Shown here in pieces: positions 3,651 through 63,396 of a DNA stretch of 64,000 bases. Numbering within the stretch: position 1 is the first letter of the stretch; every line of letters starts with the position of its first letter. Source of the DNA: Isurus oxyrinchus. Lineage: Eukaryota. Both the position numbers and the translations under genes were made by a program. The notes under the pieces are model-generated. The model ran no database searches. It had not been told where the DNA came from and was given only the letters and a program-made list of their open reading frames with translations. The stretch spans positions 2,666,001 to 2,730,000 of the forward strand of contig JANJGN010000041.1 of the NCBI GenBank assembly GCA_026770705.1, in the 5' to 3' direction.

Positions 3651-3849
3651 AAAATAAAAACAAAAAACTGCGGATGCTGGAAATCAAAAGCAAAAACAGA
3701 ATTACCTGGAAAACCCAGAACGTCTGGCACCATCGGGGGAGAAGAAAAGAGTTGACGTTTCGAGTCCTCATGAACCTTCAACAGAACTCTTTCCTTCACT
3801 GCCGATGTTGCCAGACCTGCTGAATTTATCCAGGTAATTCTGTTTTTCT
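3651..3849 (-). mobile_element. Short Penelope-derived fold-back element carrying a hammerhead motif, flanked by a TSD
   Basis: Matches the 3' end of the Penelope element at 61661-61800. Inverted arms 3692..3753 and 3785..3847. Flanked by TTCCT(T/C)TAAAGAACA at 3636..3650 and 3850..3864. Confidence 0.85.
3749..3789 (-). ncRNA. Minimal type I hammerhead ribozyme motif (A6U variant)
   Basis: Minus strand reads GAGUU-CUGUUGA-A-GGUUC-AUGAG-GACUC-GAAAC-GUC-AACUC: stem I, core box, stem II (one mismatch), GAAA and GUC cleavage triplet. Confidence 0.7.
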
Positions 3850-4129
3850 TTCCTCTAAAGAACATCTGTGCTCTGCTTATCTCCCTGTGACTTTCAGGAG
3901 CTCAACAGAGGAAGTTGACAGCTCTGTTGTTGGTAGTTGGATTCCTGTTGCTGGGAAAGACTTTCTATCTCACTCCAAATTATTATGAAATTGGGAGGTG
4001 AGTGCATCTTTCAATAGTGATTCCTGAACAATATTGATAGGAACAGGAGTCCATTCAACGACTCAATCCTGTACTGTCACTGAATTGGTGCAGGGCAGAT
4101 ATGTGTTGTCTTCACATCGAGGAATCATT

Positions 4130-34539: not shown

Positions 34540-35830
34540 GAGAGGTATAACGCATTCAGCCTCTGTCGATCCTATTACACAGCAAATATTTTGCGAAGCA
34601 ATAATCATTCTATCTCCTTATTCAAAATAATCAGCGATAACTCCTCCACCACCACCTGAGGCTGACAGTTGTTTAATCGAACATCCCACTGAGAGAGAAA
34701 AATAATTCTCCACACATCTGTCCTAAAAGTGCGAGCACTAAATTTTAAAACGGTGCTCTCCAGTTCTGGACTCAACACCACCCGCCCCACCACCCACCAC
34801 CCGCCCCCCCCCCCACCCCCCACCCCCGCACCTCGCAAGTTGAAACACCATTTGCACGTCCACCTTGTCAAAACCATTCAACCTCTTGCACACCTCAATG
34901 AAGTCACTACTTAACCTTCAAAACTCCAATAGCAACAAACCTAGCCTTTCCATCCTACACTCAGAAGACAAACCATTCATTCCAGGTATAAATCTAGTGA
35001 AACTCCTTTGAACAGTGTCTAATGCATGAACACCCATCCTTAAATAAGCAGATCAAAACTGCAAACAGTATTCTAGTTGTGATCTTAAAAAGGGCCCGTC
35101 TGACTGAAGCATCGCATTCCAATTCTTATGTTCAATTCGTCCCGTAATCGATGATAGCATTCCAACACCCTTCTTAATTAATAGTTCTACCTGTAAACCA
35201 ACATTTTGCGACTCATGCACTGGAACAACTAGATCCCTCTAAACCTCGGAATTCCGCAGTCCTGATCCATTGAAGTAACGCTCTGCTCTAATATTGTTCC
35301 TGCCAAAGTGAGCAACTTCACATTTTCTCACATTAAACACCAACGTCGAGGTTGTTTTTCCAACTCACTCAGCCTATCTCTCTCCTTCTGCAACCACCTT
35401 GTGTCCACTTCACAACACAGTATACTGCCTACCATCGTGTCACATGCATTTTTATTGCCATCTTTGCTGCCATTTTGTAACTCATTGATATGAATTGTGA
35501 ACGGAAAATGCCAGAGCACCGACTCCTGCGGGACTCCACTCGTTACATCCTGACTATCAGAAAATGTCCCATTTCTGAGTCCTATTTCTTTCTGCCAGCC
35601 AGGCAATATTCTATTCAGCTCAAATACTATCCCCTGAGCCACGGGTTTTCATTTCCTGCAATACGCTTTGAGGTGGAACCTAATCAAATGCCTCCTAGAC
35701 TTCCTAGTACAGCACCTCTACAAGCGTCTTTGTATCCAGGGCACAATTTACCCCTTCAATGAACTCCAATGAATTGGTTAGACATGATTTCCTTTTCATG
35801 AAGCCTTGCTGACACTTCCCCATTAACTTC
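34540..35830 (-). mobile_element. CR1 LINE 3' half (RT to 3' end)
   Basis: ORF 35328..35642 has FSDSQDVTSGVPQESVL...NACDT (FADDT). GACATGATTTCCTTTTCATGAAGCC at ~35780. Paralogous to 52580-53880. Confidence 0.8.
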
Positions 35831-35849
35831 TGATTTTGTAAGACTGAAT

Positions 35850-36450
35850 GTCAGTATTCTGGTTGCTGTTGAAATTATTGTTTTTCCTTTAATTGGCCCT
35901 TTGTTTAAAAAAATCTTTTGCGTTTTTTAACGTTGAAGTCGTCGTTGAATTTGTTTTTGTTTTAGCAGCTTCGTGTTGCTGTATTTGTTAGTGCTTTTAC
36001 AGGTTGAGGCTGTGTGTGTTTTCTTTCAATGTCCAAATTGTTTCTGTTTTTCAACGTTAAGGTAATTGTTGAGGTTGTTGGTGTTTTCAATGTAGAAGCT
36101 GTTCTTGAACTTGTTATTGTATTTCAATGTTGAAGTTGTTAAATTTGAAATCTTGTTTTAATGTTGAGGACGTTGTTTATATTGTTGGTTTGTTAATTAT
36201 TGAGGTTATGTTTGAAAATTTTGGCATTTTTAGTTAATGCCTTTTTTGCTGAACTTGGTGTTTCTCGGGTTTGTTGCTGAATTTGTTGGTGTTGTTCAAT
36301 GCTGAGGTTGTTGCATTTTATGTTTTTATCAATATTGAGGTGGTCCTTGTGATTGTTGTTCATTTTCAATGGCGAGGGTGTTTCCGAATTTGCTGGGTTA
36401 TTTCAATGTTGAACTGGTTGTTGAATTTGTTGATTTAAATTGTTGTAATA
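35850..36450. repeat. G/T-rich degenerate minisatellite (about 35-bp unit, TTTTCAATGTTGAGGTTGTTGTTGAATTTGTTGG)
   Basis: Recurrent TTTTCAATGTTGA(A/G)GTTGTT..GAATTTGTT motif; a longer copy is at 53890-55338. Confidence 0.75.
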
Positions 36451-37272
36451 CTCTAGTAACATGCATGCAGTAACTGAGGGGAGTGGAATATAGTGATTGA
36501 GGAGTGTTGGATGTCGTAACTGAGGATAGTGGGATGAAGTGATTGAGGCGAGTGGGATGCAAAAATCGAGGGGATTGGGATGTAGTAACTGAATGGTGTG
36601 GGATGTAGCGACTGAGTGGAGTGGGTTATAGCTGCTCAGGGTAGTGGGATTATGTGACTGAGGGGAGTGGGATGTAATAACTGAGGGGAGAGTGATGCAT
36701 GACTGAGAGGTGTCGGACGCAGTACCTGAGGGGAGAGGATTGCAGTACTTAAGGGAGTAGGATGTTGAGTCTGTGAAGCTTCGCAATGAGTCAGTTTGGG
36801 TAGTGGAATGTGTTAACTGAAGTTGTAGCCTTTACTTAGGTCACAGTCTGTGTTCACAGGGGAAAGATTCATCAGATAGAAACATATATTACAAACACTG
36901 CTGTGTGACGTTCTCTAGACACTTCTGCCGAATAAGGTTGAGTTGTTCAATAGGATCCCCATATTGCTCCTTTTCTCTCACCCTTTATTTCATATCCAGG
37001 GACATTGACAACTAAGAAACCTGAAGAAAGCTCTATCACAGCATCCACTCAGAGAATATTCTATATCTCACCTGTGTCTCCAGCCTCAGCTATCTGCCCT
37101 GTGGCGTACTTTATAAGCTGATGCTTCACTCATTGTGACTTCAAAATGACTCCGGACCAGAGATTCGCCCTATTGACGATTTGGGATGCAGTGAATTAAG
37201 GCTGCTTGATTTTGAGTAGAGTCGCAGGAGTGAACTGATGAACTTTTAGTGAAATAATAACATGTTTATCTG

Positions 37273-37295
37273 TCTATATATACATATATATATGT

Positions 37296-37325
<30 letters not shown>
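37273..37325. repeat. (TA)n/(GATA)n microsatellite
   Basis: TCTATATATACATATATATATGTATATATATATAGATAGATAGATAGATAGA. Confidence 0.9.
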
Positions 37326-37326
<1 letters not shown>

Positions 37327-38404
37327 TGAAAGGATAACACAAGGTTAAAAACTGTGCCATACTCGAATGTTCACAGTATGTTTACAGTCCATGTAAAAGT
37401 ATGACACCCTGTGATTATGTAATCCACACCTTGACATAAAGTGACAGCTGCCACCTCAAACAGATGCTATAGATTTCTCATTAACTCCTTCAAGACACCT
37501 GTCACACTGGGGCCTACACGTTTGACCACACTCTGTCTTTCACATGAGGAATTTCATTCTCCACTCTCCAAGTCCTCACCTTGGAATCTTCTCCTAAACC
37601 GGTGCTTACTCCCAGGCGCCTTTCACAATGCTTCACCTGCGGGTTTCAAAATCTCTTCCTTATGTTCTTCTTCCCGGAGCCGCCACATGAATCCAAGCTG
37701 CCTTCCATGTGTTCTCTCTCACCAAATCAGCTGTGACAGTACAGTAACTGCACATGTCCTAGCAAAGAGTTGCAGACCTTCAGCCATGTTTTCAGTCATT
37801 GTCGCCTTTTATAAGAACTTCTGGCTGTAAATCTGATTTCTGCAGCTTTTGTGTCATTAACAATGAAGCCTGAATACATTCGCTCTGCCCCTCACCCTTA
37901 CCTTCATTAATATAATCCATTCCAGGTTCCTGCTCTTCATTCACCCAGAAGGTCTTCATTGGAATTTATTCTGTTCCACTTGCCTGGATGTTGTCGTTTT
38001 CACTTTAGCTTTGGGTTGTTTATTTGTTCCCTTTTCACCAATCGATTACCAGAGGGATTTGGGATGCAGCAATTGAGTGGAGTGCGATATGCTCACTGAG
38101 TGGAATGGGATCAAGTGATTGGAAATGTGATATAGTGTCTAATCAGAAGGCAAAGCAGTCAGTGAGGGGAATGGGATTTAGTGACTGAGGTGAGGAGGGT
38201 GTGCAGTGTGAGAGGACTGAGTGTTGTGACTGTGGTGGGTGGGATGTTGTGCCTGAAGAGTTTGGGATGTTGTGATTGAGCGGATTGGGAATTTGTCACT
38301 GTGTTCCTGTGGGATGTAGTGAATGAGGTGAGTGGAGTGGGATGCATTGACTGAGGTGTATGGGATGTAGCGACTGAGTAAGTAGGATGTAGCGCCTGAG
38401 GGGT

Positions 38405-41150
38405 GGAGTGCTAACTTGTATTTTCCCCACCTTTAGTTCACATTCTCGCCTCTTGCAATCTGCTCTCTTTTTAATTTCGCTTTATGTAACTTTTGACTGT
38501 TTAAATCTGAAGCATGTTGCATTTCTCTCTTCCCCTCACTCTTAACATAATTAACATGTCCTGCTTGAGATTTTAAGCTGTTCCTCACGAACAAATTTCG
38601 TTTTATTTTCATTAGTTTGGGACTGGTTATCTGTCTCCTTTACCCCATTCTCTCTCAGAGCCACTTACAAACAAATATAGCTTGGGACTCGCTCTCTGTC
38701 TCTTTTCAGTGACTTCTTTGGCAACATTCTTGAAAGCTAGCTGGACTCCAACAGCTTCCCACACAAGCTGCTGCATTTCATCCTCCGCGTGTGTCTGTGG
38801 GAGATACGTGCCTGCTTGGACCGCTGTTGCTAGGAAACAACGCTATTTTTTCTACACTTGTGTTTGCTTAACGAAAAAAGTCATGAAATTCCCTTACAAA
38901 TGCAAGTAACTGTTTAAACTGAAGCTAAAATTCATTTTGGCGTTCCATGTAACAAAAGTCCAGAAATAAAAATCACAATTAAACTTTAAAGCGTACACTC
39001 ACACCTAACACCTACAAATGCCAATGTAACCTGCTAAAATTATATATACTTGCTAACTTGTATGACGTTTTCTGATGATTCCTGTCAAACAGGTGAAATT
39101 TCCCTGTTCACATCCTCCTTCCCCTCTGATCTCCCACCTCCTTTACACCCAGATCCAGGGACCATCCTAACTCCAGAACCAAGGTAAAAATCTATTACAG
39201 AATCTGTTGATACTTCTCTGTAAGTATCGGAAAAGTCTTCCAGCTCAAGTATCTGCACAGTGGCCTTGTTTCAAAATGGATACTTCACATAATTTGTTCT
39301 TCTCGTTACAAATGTTCCTATGTGGACTATCTGCTCCCAGAATGAGCTCATTCACAGTTCCCCATGGGAACAAAACAGAAATATCAGGGCGATTCATGGG
39401 GCCAGAAGGTGCAAGTGTGAATGATGGACTCGTTCTCAATCAAATGCATTTTTCAATCTCTTACAGATGAGCAAAGAAAGATTTCAAGAGCAAAATAAGA
39501 TGCAATATATCATTAAACTAGACTGGAAAAACTGAGGGAGTGGGGTGTAATTTGAGCAGAGTGGAGTGTGGTGACTGAGGGGAATAGAATGTAGTGATTT
39601 AAGGGAGTGAGCTGTAGTGACGGAGGGCAGTGTGATGTGATGACTTATTGGAATGAGATGTATTGAATTAGTGGAGTGAGATATAGTGACTTAGCAGAGT
39701 GGGATTCAGTGACGGAGATGATTAGTTATGTAGTAAAGGAAAGGAGTGGGATGCAGTGACTAAGGGGAGAGTGATGTAGCAACTGAGTCAGTGGGAAGTA
39801 GCGACTGAGTGGTGGAATCCTAACTTAGATTTTCCTTATCTTTATTTCACATTCTCGCTTCTTGCAATCTGCGATCTCTTTACATGTGCTTCATGCAGCT
39901 TTTGACACTTTCAATCTGGAGCATGTTGCAATTCTCTCTTCCCCTCACTCTTACCTTATTGAACATGACCTGCTTGAGCCTTTGTCCTGTTCCACCCCAT
40001 AGATTTTGTGCTATTTTCTTCAGTTTGCGACTGGTTATCTGTTGCCTTTGCTCCAATTTGTCTGGCAGACATTTACAACCAATTTTAGCTTGCGACTAGC
40101 TATCTGCCTCTTTTCAGTGGCTTCATCTAGCAACATTCTTGAAAGCTGTCTGAGCTCCAACAGCTTCCCACACCAGCTGCTGTCTTTCTTCCTCTATGTG
40201 TGTCTGTGGGAGACACGTGCCTGCCTGGACCCATGTTGCATTATTTCATTGTACACTTGTGTTTGCTTAATGAATAATTTCTAAACGCTCTTTAGAAATG
40301 CAAGTACCTTTTTAAACTTAAAGCAAAATTTCGTTTTAAATTTCTTATCACACAACTACAGAAACACTAATCAAACTTAAACTTTAAAGCGAACACCTAC
40401 AAATACCAATGCAACCTACTTAAACTATATATATTTGCTAACATGTGTGACGTTTACTGAGGCTTCATGTCAACAGGTGAAATTTCCTTTTTCCCCCACT
40501 CCTCCCTTCCTCATCTCCCTCCTCCTTTATACCACGTGCAGGGACCTTCCCGACTCCAGAACCAAGGGAACAATCGATGAAAGAAGCCATTGATATTTCT
40601 CCTTCTGTATCAGCAAAGTCTTCAAGCTCAGGTATCTGCACAGTGAGCTGTTTCATAATAGATACTTCACTTAATTTGTTGTTCAAATCACACGTGCTTC
40701 GAAGTTGACTCTTTGTTCCCAGAATGAGCTCACTCACAGGACTCCATTGAGAGAAAATCTATATATATATCAGGGCAATTAATGGGGCCAGAACGTGGAA
40801 GTGTGAATGCAGGACTTGTTCTCAATCCAATACATTATTCAATTTCTTACAAACGGCAAGTGAAAGATATCTAATATTCCATTAAAATGGATTGCAGTGA
40901 CTGATGAAGTGGGGTGTAATCTCTTAGCAGAGTGGAGTTTGTTGACTGCGGCGAGTAGTATTTAGTGATTAAAGGGAGCAAAATGTACTGCCTGAGGGCA
41001 GTGTGATGTATTTGCTTAGCGGAGTGAGATATATTGACTTAGTGGAGTGATATATAGTGGCTTAATGGAGTGGGATGCAGTGACTGACAGGATTATTTAT
41101 ATAGTGAAGGAGAGGAGTGGGATGCAGTGACGGAGGGGAGTGTGATGTAC
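38405..41150. repeat. Tandem duplication of a ~1.4-kb unit (38405-39790 and 39812-41150)
   Basis: Colinear matches, e.g. CTAACTT(G/A)..TTTTCC..TTCACATTCTCGC.TCTTGCAATCTG at 38411 and 39820, CAACAGCTTCCCACAC at 38749 and 40158, and AACAGGTGAAATTTCC at 39088 and 40472. Confidence 0.85.
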
Positions 41151-42464
41151 TAATTCCTGTGTTGAAACGCATGAGGGAGCGCTGTGGGATGGAATTACTG
41201 ATGGGGTGGGATGCAAGGAATGAGGGGATTGAGATGGAGTAAGTTAGGGGAGCGGAAAGCAATCAGTGATGGGAATGGGAATCAGTCAGTGAGGGGTGTA
41301 AGATTTAGTGACTGAGCGGAGAGGTTTGTCTTTACTGAGGGAAGTGGGATAGAGCGAATGAGGGGATCTGGTAATAATGAGCGGAGATAGTGGGAATAGT
41401 GGGAGGTCAGTGAGGCGTAGGGACTCAGGGGACTGGGAGTTAGTTACTGGGGTACAATCAGGAGTGACAGAGAATAGGAGCATTGATATGTTTAAATTCT
41501 ATCATGAAGAATTGAAGCATTTTCTAAACTTTACTACCAGTTGCATGATCTATTGAGCTGATATGCGTTCTGCAATCTCCCATGTCTCCTATCTACATTT
41601 CTGATCCAGGCATAATACCAACTTTGGAATCTGAGTAGCAATCGACTCGAAATTCCACTCTTCCTGAAGCATCCAGCCCAAAAGGATGTGAAATATCAGG
41701 TATCAGTCTGGAGAGGATATTCTGCAGAAAATCTTCACACAATGTGATCGCTACAATCTGATACTGAGTAGTGTGAGATGTGCTGACTGAGGGGAGTGGA
41801 ATGCTGTGACTAAGGGGAATGGCATCTAGTCAGTAGGGGCAGTGGGCTTTATTCACTGAGGGGATTGGCATGTAGTCAGTGGTATAATCGGATGCATTGA
41901 GGGAGGGCCAAGTGTGTATTTGTTGAGGTGAGTGGGACACAGACTAAGGGGAGTGGGATGCAATGACTGAGGGGTTTGGGGCGCAGTGAGCGAGGGGAGC
42001 CAGCCAGAATGAAAGAGGGGTCTTGGACGTAGTCATTGTGGGGAGTGGGATGCAGTAAATAAGGAGAGTTAGACGCAGTGAATCAGCACATTGGAATTCT
42101 GTGATTGAGGGTATTTTGTATAAATACCCTAATCCAGTCCCTTTTCCCTCTTCCTCTGTTTCCACTCACAACTCTTTACACTCACTCTTGTTTCAATCTC
42201 TCATGGCTTACTTCAGTAGTTTGTCGCTTGTCCTCACACTCCTGTTCCCCGCTCCATGCTGAAGGTTTAGTGTTCCTGGTTTCTCCCACTATTTGGAGAG
42301 TTTGGGCCAGCCGACTTTATTTCTCAGTTGAAATGTAGATGATTCTGCAGCTGAGGATTTCTGACGAATCCCTTGGTGAGTAATGCTAATGAATGATTCG
42401 CTGTGGCAAAACAGTGATAACAGGTTAAATAGGAAGTGAGGATGTCCAGAATGCAAGATCAGAA

Positions 42465-46693: not shown

Positions 46694-47613
46694 TCAGTGA
46701 TTTAATTCTTCAAAGCATTGAAAGCTTCGAAATATTGGAGTACAGGGATATTTCAGCACATTCTTGAAATGCTCCCTGAACATTTTCTGGTCCACGGCGT
46801 AATTACAAGTGTTTGTGCAGCAGCTCAGGAGCTGCAGCATGAAGCCCAATTCCTGCACATAGTCATCCATCCATAGAGATGGTGGCATCATTTAAAGCGT
46901 CCTCCTCCATATAGAAAACACCAGTAACATCACCCACAACAGGATAAAATTGGCCGAGGTAGCAAACAGCAAAATTATGGATATCCTCCAACTCTCCATC
47001 TCTGGGTCTCTGGCACTCTCCCCGCTCTTCTGCGCCCGGACTCTCCTGTAGGCTCTGCTCTTCACTAAAATGCATCTGACTGTGAAAACGCTGAGCATCA
47101 GAATGAGGACAAATGGAGCGCAAGGTGTTAGAATGTGATGGAGGAATTCTATCGTTACCCAGGCCTTAAAGAGCTGAACCTCTCTTATCACAATACAAAA
47201 CCAGAGTTTGTTCATCAGCAAATACCAACATGATAACATGAAATACCAGAAAACATTCAGTAAAAAGCTCAGCACAGTCATGCTTCCCAGGACCCCAGCT
47301 GCCGTTTTCTCACTGCAATATTTACTTTTCAGCTTCTCACAACAAATGGCCACAAACCGATCAAAGGTGAAAGAGAAGGTGATCCAGACAGAACAGTCAA
47401 TGGCTGCATAAAGCAGGACAGCATTGATATTACAGACACTCATGGCCCACAGGAAATTAAAATATTCTGAATAAACAATCGGAATGTGTCTCAATATCAG
47501 GTCCAAAATAATCACCAGGAGATCTGCCGCTGCATTGAACACCAGGTAGCAACTGACACATTTGGAGTGGAAACAATTTCTCCGAGTTAAGATGACAATC
47601 GTCAATAGGTTTA
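46694..47613 (-). pseudogene. GPR139/GPR142-like GPCR exon 2 with an in-frame premature stop
   Basis: Intact acceptor TTCTCTGTTCCTTGCAG (AG at 47615-47614), phase 1. Reads NLLTIVILTRRNC..AAADLLV..DCSVWITFSFTFDRFVAIC..ESWRISIILL, then TAA at 46894-46892 after TM6. The same frame continues with ELGFMLQLLSCCTNTC..FREHFK. Confidence 0.88.
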
Positions 47614-47932
47614 CTGCAAGGAACAGAGAAAATGGTGGAATTATGCAAGAAGCTTAAATAAAAAAAAATGTTTGACTGAAGGCGCTGAAATGTTCTACTA
47701 TGTTGCTGCATCAAGTGACCTATTGAAAGAGCTGTAGATGGACTAGTAAAGTGAAATGACTGTTATATGGTGGAAGAGAGAATAGATGAAATATACTGAA
47801 ATTGCAGAATTCGATGCTACTCATCACCCTGTTGTCTTTGCTTATCTCGAAGCACTTCTAATTTTGATAGAATAGAGTAAATCAGCTAAACATGATTCAT
47901 GGAAGTAACAGTCATATACAGTGAGACTGAGA

Positions 47933-52579: not shown

Positions 52580-53880
52580 AATAGGAGCAGGAGTCCACCA
52601 TTCGGCCGATCGAACCTGCTCCCCATTCAATACGTTCATGGCTGACCTGTTTGTATTAATAATTCCTCATTCCTATCTACCGCGGATAACATTTGACTCA
52701 CTTGCCTAGCAATAATCTCTCCATCTCCCTCTTAAAGATATGCAGTGATCCCACCTCCACCGACACCTGAGGCTGACAGATCCATAGTCAAATATTCCTC
52801 TGAGGGTCCAAAATAATTATCCATATGTCTGACCTAAAAGTGCAAGGACAAATTTTTAAAAAGTGCTCTCTAGTTCTTGACTCACCATCAAAGAGGAAAC
52901 ACGGTTTGCACGCCCACCTTGTCAAGACCATTCAGGGTCTTTTACACGTCAATGAAGTCGCCATGTATTCTTCTGAACTCCAATGGAAACAAGCCCGGCC
53001 TGTCCAACCTGCACTCAGGAGACAACCCATTCATTCCAGCTATAAATCTAGTGAAACTCCTTTGAACAGTGTCTAATGCATGATCACCCTTCCTTAAATA
53101 AGCAGAGCAAAACGGCAAATAGTATACTGGATTTGTTCTCACTTAAAGCCCCGTCTAACTGAAACATAACATTCCTATTCTTATGTTCCATTTGTTCCAC
53201 GATCGAGGAAAGCATTCTACTAGCATTCTTAATTAACTGTTGTACCTGTATACTAACATTTTGTGACTCATGCACAGAAAGTTTTACATCCGTCTGCACC
53301 TTGGAATTCTGCAGTTCTTCACCACTTATGTAACGTTCTGGTCTTTTATTCTTCCTGCCAAAGTGAGCAAATTCACATTTTCTCACATTAAACTCCAACG
53401 TCCAGGTAAATCCATCTCACGCAGCCTATCTATACCCTTCTGCAACCACCTTGTGTCCGCTTGACAACACACTTTCTTACATATCGTTGTGTCATCTGCA
53501 TTTTTATTGCAATCTTTGCTCCCCTCTTGTAACTCATGATATGAATTGTACAAATGTTTGGTCCCGAGCACCAACTCCTGCGGGGCTCCACTCGTTATTT
53601 CCTGCCAATCAGAAAATGTCCCTCTGCATCTTTCTTTTTTCCCTGCCAGACAGGCAATCTTCTATCCAGCTCAAATGCAATCACCTGATCCATGGATTTT
53701 CATTTTCCACAATAAGCTTTGATGTGGCACCTAATCGAAATCCTCTGAGAATTCCTAGTACAGCACCTCTACAGGCTTCTCTGTATCCATGGCACAATTT
53801 ACCCCTTCAAAGTACTCCAAAGAATTGGTAAAACATGATTTCCTTTCACAAAACCATTTTCCTTCCCCATTAACTTGAGA
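52580..53880 (-). mobile_element. CR1 LINE 3' half (paralog of 34540-35830)
   Basis: ORFs with NADDTTI, MEFNVRKCEFAHFGRKN and LDTVQRSFTRFIAGMNGLS..RLDRPGLFPLEFRR. 3' tail AGGAGCAGGAGTCCACCATTCGGCC. Confidence 0.85.
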
Positions 53881-53889
53881 TTTTCTAAT

Positions 53890-55338
53890 TGCAAATTACA
53901 GTATTCCGTTTGCTGTTGATTTTTTTTTAATTGATACCGTTTTTGTTAACATAAACAAAAATACTTGGAAAAACTCAGCAGGTCTGGCAGCATCGGCCGA
54001 GAAGAAAAGAGTTGACGCTTCAAGTCCTCAGGACCGTTCAACTGAACTAGTTGGTGCTTTTTACAGTTTGAGTCTGTGTGTGTTTTGTTCAACGATAACA
54101 TTGTCCAAGTTGCTGGTCGTTTTCAACGGAATTGTTCAAGTTTTTGGAGTTTTCAATGTAGAAGTTGCTTTTGAATTTGTTGTTTTACTTCAATGTTGAA
54201 GTTGTTGTTGAATTTGTTAACGTTTTCAAATGTTGAGGATGTTGTGTAGTTTGTTGGTTTGTTAAAATTGACGTTATGTTTGAAAATTTTGGCATTTTTA
54301 GTTAATGCAATTTTTGCTGAACATGGTGTTTCTCGGGGTTGTTGTTGATTTTGTTGGTGTTGTTGAATGCTGAGGTTGTTGAATTTTATGGTCTTTATCA
54401 ACGTTGAGGTTGTTCTTGCGTTTGTTGTTCATTTTCAATGGCGAGGTTTTTCATGAATTTGCTGGTGTTTTATATTGTTGAGGATGTTGGTGATTTTGTG
54501 CGAGTGTTTCAATGTTGAAGTTGTTGTTGAATATGTTTTTCAATGTTGAGGTAGCCGTTGAATATGTGGCAGTTTTCAATTTTGTGGTTGTTCAACTTGT
54601 TCGTGTTTTTGGTGATAAACTTGTTGTTGGATTTGTTGCTGTTCTTCAATCTTGAGTTTGTTCTGGAATTTGTTCATCAGTTTCAATTGCAAATTTGTTT
54701 GTGAATGGGTTGATGAATTTTCTCCTGTTTTTCAATGACGATGATGTTGCTGAGTTTCTTGGTGTTTTCGCTGTTCAGGTTGTTATTGAATTTGTTGATC
54801 TGTTTTTAATTTTCCGGTTGCTGTTGAATTTGTTGTTTTGTTCTGCACCCTATTCTTCTTGCATTTGTTCATGTTTTTACATGTTGAGGTTTTGTTCTTC
54901 TTTTTCCAATAATATCATTTTGGAAGTTGTTGCTGTTTTTCAATTCAAGGGTGTTTTTTAATTTGTTGACAGTTCCAATATTGGGTTGTTGATAAACTTG
55001 TTGGCGATTTTCCATGGCAAGGTTTTCTTTGAATTTATTTTTTGTTTTTAAATCCTGGTTGTTGAATTTCTTGATGCTTTTCAGTGTTTTGTTTGTCGTT
55101 GGATTTTTTTTGTTGTTGCTGTTTTTCAATGCTGAAGATGTTGCCGAATAGGTTGATATTTTCCAATGGTTATTGTTGAAATTGTTCATATTTCTTTTTA
55201 TTTTGAGTTTGTTATCGAATTTGATGGAGTTGTTCAATATTGATGTTGTTCTTGAATGTGTTGGTGGTTTTCAAAACTGCGGTTCTTTATGATTTTTTTG
55301 GTGATTCCAATGTTGAAGTTATTGTTAAATCTGTTGGT
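53890..55338. repeat. G/T-rich ~35-bp degenerate minisatellite
   Basis: Repeated TTTTCAATGTTGA.GTTGTTG.TGAATTTGTT. It produces spurious N/Q/K-rich ORFs on the minus strand. Confidence 0.8.
53951..54048 (-). mobile_element. Short Penelope 3'-end derivative with a degenerate hammerhead motif
   Basis: GGAAAAACTCAGCAGGTCTGGCAGCATCGG..GAAGAAAAGAGTTGACG matches 61717-61767. Core has decayed to CAGUUGA...GAAGC. Confidence 0.8.
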
Positions 55339-60888: not shown

Positions 60889-60988
60889 AATGTTGTGGAA
60901 GGGTCATGAGGACTCGAAACGTCAACTCTTTTCTTCTCTGCCGATGCTGCCAGACCTGCTGAGTTTTTCCAGGTAATTCTGTTTTTGT
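60889..60988 (+). mobile_element. 100-bp Penelope 3'-end derivative (hammerhead motif plus tail) with a perfect 13-bp TSD
   Basis: TTCCCCCAACACA at 60876..60888 and 60989..61001. The interior is the near-exact reverse complement of 61697-61793. Confidence 0.88.
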
Positions 60989-61660
60989 TTCCCCCAACAC
61001 ATCTCTATCCTGGAGATTCGTTCACTCTGTCAGCGAGGGGATGGGATGGAATGTGACCCTCGAGCCTTGCTCCTCCCCTATTCCCCTAGCCCCCACTTAG
61101 CTCGCACCCATCCAATCCACCTCGATACCCAGTTCTCACTCCCACCTCTAACCCTGCCCAGGGGCTTTGTGTGGGTGTGTCTGAAGCATTGTCCTATCGA
61201 CGTTACTGTGGTCCTGGACCTCAACAACGTTAATTGTGACTGGATCAAAGCCGAAGTCAAAGTGACGTATGTCGTGAAGTACAAACTGGACATTTGTGAG
61301 GAAAAGGAAGCCCATCTTCGTCAGGTCAGGGGCTTCATCCTGCAGTCATTCCCAGGCTGTGGGCATCAGGCAATCAATTACACGAGTGGGCGTTATTTAA
61401 CCATTCCATTGATTCAACATCTGCAGCTGGCATTGAGTCGAGGGCAGGAATAACGTTTCTCTTCCTCACTCTCTGGGAGGGGTTTAATTGAACTGACTGG
61501 GGAGAGGGGAGTGAGTTCCCCAAATGCTGAATGGGCAGAGTGTGAAGTGGTGTGAAGGGGAAAGGGAGTATTCGGGTCTTGGCGAGCAGGGACATGTTTC
61601 CCGCTTATGTTCAGTGATTGAACTTCCCTCGTGCTAAGGGACCAATCGATGTCTCCTGAG

Positions 61661-63396
61661 GTAAAAACAAAGAGAACTGCGGATGCTGGAAATCCAAAAC
61701 AAAAACAGAATTACCTGGAAAAACTCAGCAGGTCTGGCAGCATCGGCGGAGAAGAAAAGAGTTGACGTTTCGAGTCTTCATGACCCTTCGACAGAACTTG
61801 ATTTCGAGTCCAGGAAAGAGTTGAAATATAAGCTGGTTTAAGGTGTGTGTTTGGGGGGGGGGGGGGGGGGGGGCGGAGAGAGAGAGAGAGACAGAGGTGC
61901 TTGTGTAGACAAACAAGCAGTGATAGAAGCAGATCATCAAAAGATGTCAGTGACAATGGGACAAAAGGACACATAGGTGTTAAAGTTAAAGTTGGTGATA
62001 TTATCTAAACGAATGTGCTAATTAAGAATGGATGGTAGGACACTCAAGGTACAGCTCTAGTGGGGGTGGGGGGAGCATAAAAGATTTTAAAATATTTAAA
62101 AATAAGTGGGAAAAGAAAAATCTGTAAAATTTATAGGGAAAAAAAAGGGGGAAAAAAGGGGGAAACAGAAAGGGGGTGGGGATGGGGGAGGGAGCTCACG
62201 ACCTAAAGTTATTGAATTCAATATTCAGACCGGAAGGCTGTAAGGTGCCTAGTCGGAAGATGAGGTGTTGTTCCTCCAGTTTGCGTTGGGCTTCACTGGA
62301 ACAATGCAGTAAGCCAAGGACAGACATGTGGGCAAGAGAGCAGGGTGGAGTGTTAAAATGGCAAGCGACAGGGAGGTTTGGGTCATTCTTGCGGACAGAC
62401 CGCAGGTGTTCTGCAAAGCGGTCGCCCAGTTTACGTTTGGTCTCTCCAATGTAGAGGAGACCACATTGGGAGCAACGAATGCAGTAGACTAAGTTGGGGG
62501 AAATACAAGTGAAATGCTGCTTCACTTGAAAGGAGTGTTTGGGCCCTTGGACGGTGAGGAGAGAGGAAGTGAAGGGGCAGGTGTGACATCTTTTGCGTGG
62601 GCATGGGGTGGTGCCATAGGAGGGGGTTGAGGAGTAGGGAGTGATGGAGGAGTGGACCAGGGTGTCCCGGAGGGAGCGATCCCTACGGAATGCCGATAAG
62701 GGGGGTGAAGGGAAGATGTGTTTGGTGGTGGCATCATGCTGGAGTTGGCGGAAATGGCGGAGGATGATCCTTTGAATGCGGAGGCTGGTGGGGTGATAAG
62801 TGAGGACAAGGGGGACCCTATCATGTTTCTGGGAGGGAGGAGAAGGCGTGAGGGCAGATGCGCGGGAGATGGGCCGGACACGGTTGAGGGCCCTGTCAAC
62901 GACCGTGGGTGGAAAACCTCTGTTAAGGAAGAAGGAGGACATGTCAGAGGAACCGTTTTTGAAGGTAGCATCATCGGAACAGATGCGACGAAGGCGAAGG
63001 AACTGGGAGAATGGGATGGGGGTCCTTACAGGAAGCGGGGTGTGAGGAGCTGTAGTCGAGGTAGCTGTGGGAGTCGGTGGGTTTGTAATGGATATTAGTG
63101 GACAGTCTATCACCAGAGATTGAGACAGAGAGGTCAAGGAAGGGAAGGGAAGTGTCAGAGATGGACCACGTGAAAATGATGGAGGGGTGGAGATTGGAAG
63201 CAAAATTAATAAATTTTTCCAAGTCCCGATGAGAGCATGAAGCGGCACCGAAGTAATCATCGATGTACCGGAGAAAAAGTTGTGGAAGGGGGCCGGGGTA
63301 GGACTGCAACAAGGAATGTTCCACATATCCCATAAAGAGACAGGCATAGCTGGGGCCCATGCGGGTACCCATAGCCACACCTTTTATTTGGAGAAC
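61661..63396 (-). mobile_element. 5'-truncated Penelope-like retroelement (RT C-terminus, GIY-YIG endonuclease, 3' pLTR region)
   Basis: RT motifs GVAMGTRMGPSYACLFMG, FLRYIDD, LPFLDL and YKPTDSHSYLDYSSSHP, continuing after a frameshift (~63020) into IPFSQFLRLRRICS and NLVYCIRCSQCGLLYIGETKRKLGDRFAEH..LGTLQPSGLN (GIY-YIG). TSD TCTCCTGAG at 61652..61660 and 63397..63405. Confidence 0.95.
61760..61798 (-). ncRNA. Minimal type I hammerhead ribozyme motif in the Penelope 3' end (A6U variant)
   Basis: AGUU-CUGUCGA-A-GGGUC-AUGAA-GACUC-GAAAC-GUC-AACU, with a 5-bp stem II and palindromic ACGU in place of stem III, as in known PLE minimal hammerheads. Confidence 0.75.

Follow-up and report, generated by a model that had tools for sequence, protein, structure and literature searches.

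A family-wide A-to-U change at core position 6 in the hammerhead motif of a Neptune-type Penelope-like element lineage

In the lineage of Penelope-like elements described here, the hammerhead motif has U at core position 6, where the canonical motif has A (the two states are hereafter referred to as U6 and A6). The change, A6U, is real, family-wide and derived, and it affects the core of a motif whose kind is already known; U6 reflects neither chance nor copy decay. Among 75,507 exact genomic matches to the young sequence context (CTG-N-N before a 30-mer that lies 3′ of position 7), 73,769 have U at position 6, in agreement with a sequence-only reading of the DNA in which U6 was proposed to be inherited at the level of the family. 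As to its consequences, we give roughly even chances to the explanation that U6 slows self-cutting in a Neptune-type lineage of more than 100,000 copies, which would be copied from uncut RNA while the hammerhead-shaped sequence is kept.

The motif and its host element

The window, the whole 64-kb stretch of DNA that was analysed, contains the features collected in Table 1. Its motif has type I topology, with a stem I of 4 bp, a stem II of 5 bp and no helix III, the place of stem III being taken by an ACGU palindrome (15.1-16.1). The core GAAA is followed by a cleavage triplet of the UH kind (GAAA-C-GUC), which is GUU in older subfamilies. The CUGANGA core is absent from the U6 lineage and present in its older relatives. 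All four copies in the window have U6, as judged from sequence and alignment. The sequence-only reading had described the minimal type I anatomy (stems I and II, the extra A and the palindrome) and the Penelope setting, both of which we confirm; its coordinates for the other three copies were right, whereas CUGUCGA had been placed at 61787-93 on the minus strand, one nucleotide off its actual position.

Table 1. Positions of the hammerhead motif, the related short copies and the host element in the window
Feature	Position	Strand	Basis or remark
Minimal type I hammerhead, U6 core CUGUCGA	61760..61798	-	sequence, alignment; anatomy as in PMC4209133 (accessible part)
Core position 6, U (canonical A)	61791	-	sequence and genomic counts
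Stem I, AGUU	61798-61795	-	3′ strand AACU, 61763-61760
Core CUGUCGA	61794-61788	-	sequence
Extra A between 9 and 10.1	61787	-	
Stem II, GGGUC and GACUC	61786-61782 and 61776-61772	-	5 bp; loop AUGAA
GAAA, then C-G-U-C	61771-61768, then 61767-61764	-	
Predicted cut site	between 61764 and 61763	-	
Short copy from near stem I, core UUGUGGA (U6)	60894..60990	+	
Short decayed copy from stem I, core CAGUUGA (U6)	53948..54048	-	
Short fold-back insertion, core CUGUUGA (U6)	3657..3851	-	copy 3788-3657 from stem I; inverted arm 3785-3851
5′-truncated copy of Neptune-type Penelope-like element, youngest subfamily	61658..63395	-	
3′ half of RT + GIY-YIG ORF	62196..63395	-	frame broken by 1-nt insertion at ~63018
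3′ pseudo-LTR with hammerhead	61696..62195	-	
TATA-like TATATTT, putative promoter	61824..61830	-	
Conserved sequence 3′ of motif plus tail, where genomic copies end; putative RT-initiation region	61658..61759	-	

The motif is set in the 3′ pseudo-LTR (pLTR) of the element, whose copy in the window is 97.4% identical over 61696-63395 to an intact tandem unit (L112). The tandems have 3.3-kb units with one motif per unit, flanking a 926-codon RT+EN frame, and among the 10 regions examined full open frames of 925-926 codons lie between U6 motifs in two (L112 and L117). The single ORF of the intact unit matches RVT_1 (E 7e-8) and, in its C-terminal part, GIY-YIG (E 9e-4, below the cut-off of that model); it has the RT motifs DKG and YIDD and, between RT and EN, a CX2-5CxxC linker, CPRKRCNTC, at residue 792. 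In the window ORF a CX4CX2C linker precedes the endonuclease. A search of the full ORF against PDB by sequence gave 0 matches. The CX4CX2C linker is described in the accessible part of PMC8557442 as a mark of Neptune and Nematis. From ORF layout and linker, a motif that Nematis also has, we class the element as a Neptune-type EN+ PLE. Features shared with the Neptune clade as described there include one ORF that combines RT with a C-terminal GIY-YIG, the linker, partial tandems, inverted 5′-truncated copies and a tail. A non-LTR retrozyme, built of non-coding tandem repeats that each have a hammerhead, was ruled out, since the whole ORF is encoded within the tandem unit and the short copies are solo or fold-back. 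Comparison of the oldest and youngest U6 groups over 290 codons gave a dS of 0.175 and a dN of 0.030, which places the ORF under purifying selection.

The motif closely resembles the min-HHR that Cervera and De la Peña (2014, PMC4209133) described for Penelope-like elements of metazoans. In the accessible part of that paper the min-HHR likewise sits in the pLTR and lacks helix III, and it shares with our family a palindromic 15.2-16.2, an extra nucleotide between 9 and 10.1, the G10.1-C11.1 pair and the prevalence of solo truncated copies. The two differ in that the min-HHR consensus is CUGANGAH, with A6 in the supplementary rows covered here, whereas U6 is fixed in our dominant lineage; the variant reported among min-HHRs is U3-A8, and their dimer activity is low. 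In the accessible part of PMC11167929, the Anolis Poseidon element PAc likewise has its hammerhead upstream of the tail in which copies terminate, and uncut RNA is its apparent template. PAc belongs to the Poseidon clade and has its ORF start in stem II, and the same part mentions no change at position 6; the family here has the Neptune-type linker, and its long ORF begins ~140 nt downstream of where the core starts. A natural pyrimidine at position 6 is known from the A6C hammerhead of phage Bcep176 (PMC3088659; PMC7151607, in part), a single phage ribozyme outside retroelements, with C rather than U, low activity in Mg2+ and a preference for Mn2+. Within the literature covered, which leaves most subscription papers outside, we found neither a natural A6U hammerhead nor shark Penelope hammerheads described. 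A catalogue by Lünse (2017) reportedly lists Penelope hammerhead variants and may include A6U.

The sequence-only reading had also proposed a check against the Rfam hammerhead models. The Rfam covariance models gave zero hammerhead matches in the 64-kb window (E<=5) and zero in four A6 and two U6 loci (E<=10). Because the four A6 loci were missed as well, A6U is not the cause of the miss, and this check therefore says nothing about A6U. The prediction that CUGANGA pattern searches would miss the U6 motif holds by definition, for instance for the descriptor string 'cuganga' used in PMC8557442 (accessible part).

Several other features of the motif and the window were recorded. In younger subfamilies an ATG in loop II starts an upstream frame of 18 codons that spans the cut site (61780-61724, minus strand); it is absent at the equivalent place in the A6 consensuses. 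The flank at 61799-61823 (minus strand) acquired, in the young subfamilies, a stepwise likeness to the motif's own 3′ strands (CAACTCTTT, GGACTCGAAA) and also came to pair with the downstream TCCAGG, with no clear folding trend. The idea that this upstream flank evolved as a decoy blocking the fold was dropped, there being no steady trend across subfamilies, and a permuted hammerhead via the upstream GGACUC-GAAA appeared implausible by eye, without a usable stem III. Elsewhere in the window are two intronless rhodopsin-family GPCR frames (PF00001; 26251-27207, plus strand, and 46748-47653, minus strand), 40% identical; a duplicated segment (34591-36430 and 52702-54536), its copies ~18 kb apart and 76-91% identical, that contains a 37-nt degenerate tandem repeat; and a degenerate 23-nt tandem repeat within a higher-order unit of ~1.4 kb (~36448-41836). 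Positions 128-185 of another locus (L083) have a tRNA-like match that is weak (E 1) and may represent the head of a SINE.

Position 6 across the genome and through the history of the family

In the 4.98-Gb genome searched, the 30-mer had 82,442 exact matches and its reversed-pattern control 0. The 1,738 young-context matches without U at position 6 comprised 1,517 with C and 221 with A or G (64 A and 36 G by hand count in the first 100). In the young context A6 stays at background, with ~140 copies dispersed among the subfamilies. With a loose pattern, U6 had 105,660 matches and A6 9,834 (controls, 22 and 29), so that a tabulation of position 6, as the sequence-only reading had suggested, makes U6 dominant and A6 a minority. 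A set unselected for the core was obtained by choosing copies solely on a 31-mer downstream of the motif: among 99 such copies (from the first 100 of 130,763 matches), position 6 was covered in 80 and was U in 74, C in 4 and A in 2. The family is also present in DNA contigs of a second organism, where, on indirect grounds, U6 is probably common to it as well; the sole T>A place counted among the rows listed lay elsewhere in the stretch. Two raw-read runs of other organisms had 4 and 0 family reads, and the runs that hold the family are contigs.

The C6 variant (CUGCUGA), to which the 1,517 exact matches belong (e.g. L070, L071, L074 and L078), has itself been amplified; it bears the substitution known from the Mn2+-preferring phage ribozyme. 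Its number is ~10 times the T>C level at U4 (~160), and it is tied to U7 in 78 of the first 100 matches. The U4 control gave an unexpected result: G was present in 58 of the first 100 of 987 matches, which extrapolates to ~570 exact matches of a U4G+U6 core (CGGUCGA; e.g. L320, L321, L324, L329, L334, L335 and L337) as compared with ~80 T>G at position 6. We examined 30 G4, 5 A4 and 5 C4 loci; all five A4 loci proved to be junction artefacts. G4 was concentrated in one flank type (5/9 versus 3/36, p 0.004) and stood on both arms in six of seven fold-back loci. Amplification of the double core mutant is accordingly likely rather than certain, because the G4 copies do not form a single clade in FastTree and both-arm sharing was also seen for C4 (L352, L354) and for one listed A6 pair. 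On account of this A6 pair, the idea that A6 revertants never get copied was dropped.

The A6 matches represent older relatives with the same stem II. The subfamily consensuses, drawn largely from core-fixed searches, form a series from A6A7 through A6U7 to U6U7 (with A-U in stem II and GUU), followed by the change to G-U, a new loop together with GUC, U6C7 and the window type. Divergence from the subfamily consensus falls along the series, from 5.5% for A6U7 and 4.8% for the oldest U6 to 3.0, 1.1 and, for the window subfamily, 0.6%. A FastTree phylogeny was built from those 109 of the 165 flank-bearing copies that had 330 or more aligned columns, with CpGs and positions 4 and 6 masked. The tree forms a ladder on which A6 is basal and the U6 subfamilies above it become successively younger; the young-context A6 copies appear as tips dispersed over it. 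A long branch among the young copies bears two A6 copies of the old type (L084 and L300), probably owing to chimeric alignment. These results show that the ancestral state is A6 and that U6 is present in every younger trunk subfamily and in the tandem elements with intact ORFs.

Constraint on the motif since the substitution

Across the seven U6 consensuses, which come largely from core-selected searches, none of 14 core sites varied as compared with five of eight permissive sites (Fisher p 0.002), and one of 16 other stem sites changed, with pairing kept. The changes since A6U are confined to N7, H17, loop II and one A-U pair that became G-U. Measured against the synonymous rate of the ORF (pS 0.156), core constancy alone was not significant (P ~0.09), while core and stems together, with one change in 30 sites, gave a P of 0.04. 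The downstream tail is also conserved (7/70 changes), and core constancy relative to the tail had a P of 0.23. In the 99 unselected copies the remaining core sites are conserved save for CpG decay (G12 to A in 9/96). Among 21 hand-picked copies across subfamilies of one lineage, a sample of low power, 96.8% of stem cells were paired and G10.1-C11.1 was present in all 21, and two-sided covariation was found in none of nine pairs; within this lineage the result thus goes against the sequence-only reading, which had named lack of stem covariation as counting against it. The monomer folded no better than shuffled sequences (z 0.00), in every subfamily, A6 included, the hammerhead fold was 3.8-11.5 kcal/mol above the ensemble, and unconstrained dimer folding did not yield the hammerhead dimer, the last result being weak evidence in either direction. 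Taken together, constraint on hammerhead shape is moderately supported by the sequence comparisons, and constraint on catalysis is not shown by them.

That the U6-era changes track hammerhead rules so closely could mean that cutting still matters, which counts against a weakened ribozyme. U6 might then be a working variant in which ACGU dimers or the element's protein offset the lost A6 contacts, cleavage being needed somewhere, for example in RNA processing or translation control. Such a reading would be in keeping with the restriction of changes to permissive positions and the conserved core of the unselected copies. It would also accord with the Anolis hammerhead, which cleaves only with its own protein (PMC11167929, accessible part), and with natural A6C, which cleaves slowly in general and well in Mn2+ (PMC3088659, PMC7151607, in part). 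We nevertheless consider it unlikely, given that core constancy alone is not significant against either the synonymous rate or the tail, that C6 and probably U4G+U6 sources were amplified and that two-sided covariation was not found.

The shuffled-sequence score, the folding penalty, the conserved tail and the probable amplification of the U4G lineage would be expected, conversely, of a dead relic under no RNA-structure constraint, its sequence conserved through short time or through overlapping promoter or protein-binding DNA. The folding penalty is shared by the A6 ancestors, and the single change in core and stems stands against changes at most permissive sites; we regard a relic as improbable.

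Copy ends, templates and the consequences of a slower ribozyme

Among the 99 unselected copies, 25 had their 5′ junction within a few bases of the 5′ edge of stem I and one had it at the cut site; on the whole, copies start for the most part at the 5′ edge of the motif or farther upstream, and very seldom at the cut site. Junctions at the cut site numbered ~27 in the first 100 of 947 non-C17 matches, a set enriched for them, and many of these are AACU/AGUU microhomology fold-backs. The older, A6-rich group (17 A6 among 27 readable cores) also had 1/100 junctions at the cut site, without a peak, and because of this the junction test cannot separate U6 from A6. Templates look uncut in both states. 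In Anolis, as far as the accessible text of PMC11167929 goes, catalytic mutants of the Penelope hammerhead had no effect on insertion in vitro, zero RNA-seq reads started or ended at the cut site, and RT initiated internally, in the tail.

Known substitutions at position 6 slow hammerheads in Mg2+, although the rates are for A6C and not A6U: natural A6C had a kobs under 0.1 per min (PMC3088659), and in one hammerhead A6C lowered kobs from 0.3 to 3.55e-6 per min at 0.3 mM Mg2+, with 0.18 in Mn2+ (PMC7151607). Low activity is also reported for CUGA-turn mutants other than a C3/G8 swap (PMC9901934). These statements are those of the accessible parts of the three papers.

The explanation to which we give even chances, that of a weakened ribozyme, would run as follows. 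The dominant lineage exchanged A6 for U and went on to make more than 100,000 copies, with A6U likely slowing self-cutting strongly. In each of the ten subfamily consensuses scored for it, a TATA-like box precedes stem I by 28-32 nt, which suggests that transcription starts near stem I; a similar TATA+Inr is described for the Adineta Pen2a pLTR (PMC3846280, accessible part). The ends of genomic copies lie 70-100 nt to the 3′ side of the cut site, and reverse transcription would start in the tail there, so that productive templates would have to be uncut. Weak selection may maintain the motif itself, whether as a structural cis element or as a very slow, protein-assisted cutter. Since the family kept multiplying after A6U, cutting is likely to be slow or unnecessary for jumping. 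The sequence-only reading had left the choice between an active variant and an attenuated ribozyme; the evidence leans to the latter, because the cut site does not bound the copies, because C6 was amplified, as probably was U4G+U6, and because substitution at position 6 is known, from A6C, to slow hammerheads in Mg2+.

An extension of the weakened-ribozyme explanation, which we hold to be improbable as well, is that A6U and later C6 and U4G disarmed stepwise a cut that severs the RT start, a release that would have helped one lineage to reach more than 100,000 copies. In its adaptive form, the hammerhead cut at the 3′ end of a read-through transcript would split the RT-start tail from the ORF body and therefore act as a brake on copying, and its weakening would have let U6 displace A6. 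The geometry fits, with copies ending 3′ of the cut and RT initiating in the tail (PMC11167929, accessible part); U6 outnumbers A6 by ~11 to 1, young-context A6 stays at background, and hammerhead-less Naiads attain high copy numbers (PMC8557442, accessible part). This form seems quite improbable, in that one substitution on a single-trunk lineage is indistinguishable from hitch-hiking, the largest burst followed A6U after a long interval (dS 0.175), decay causes older A6 copies to be undercounted and one A6 pair is shared by both arms.

The role of hammerheads in Penelope elements is still open in the accessible parts of PMC8557442 and PMC11167929. The family provides a natural, dated series within a single backbone (A6, U6, C6 and U4G+U6), together with intact source elements, by which cleavage rate becomes directly comparable with transposition success. 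Surveys of this genome based on CUGANGA would overlook some nine-tenths of the lineage's loosely matched motifs. An active U6 would call for a wider hammerhead core consensus, and an inactive one would make cleavage dispensable for a very successful vertebrate retroelement. Should the stepwise disarming be true, Penelope hammerheads would be self-limiting brakes or structural tags rather than RNA-processing enzymes.
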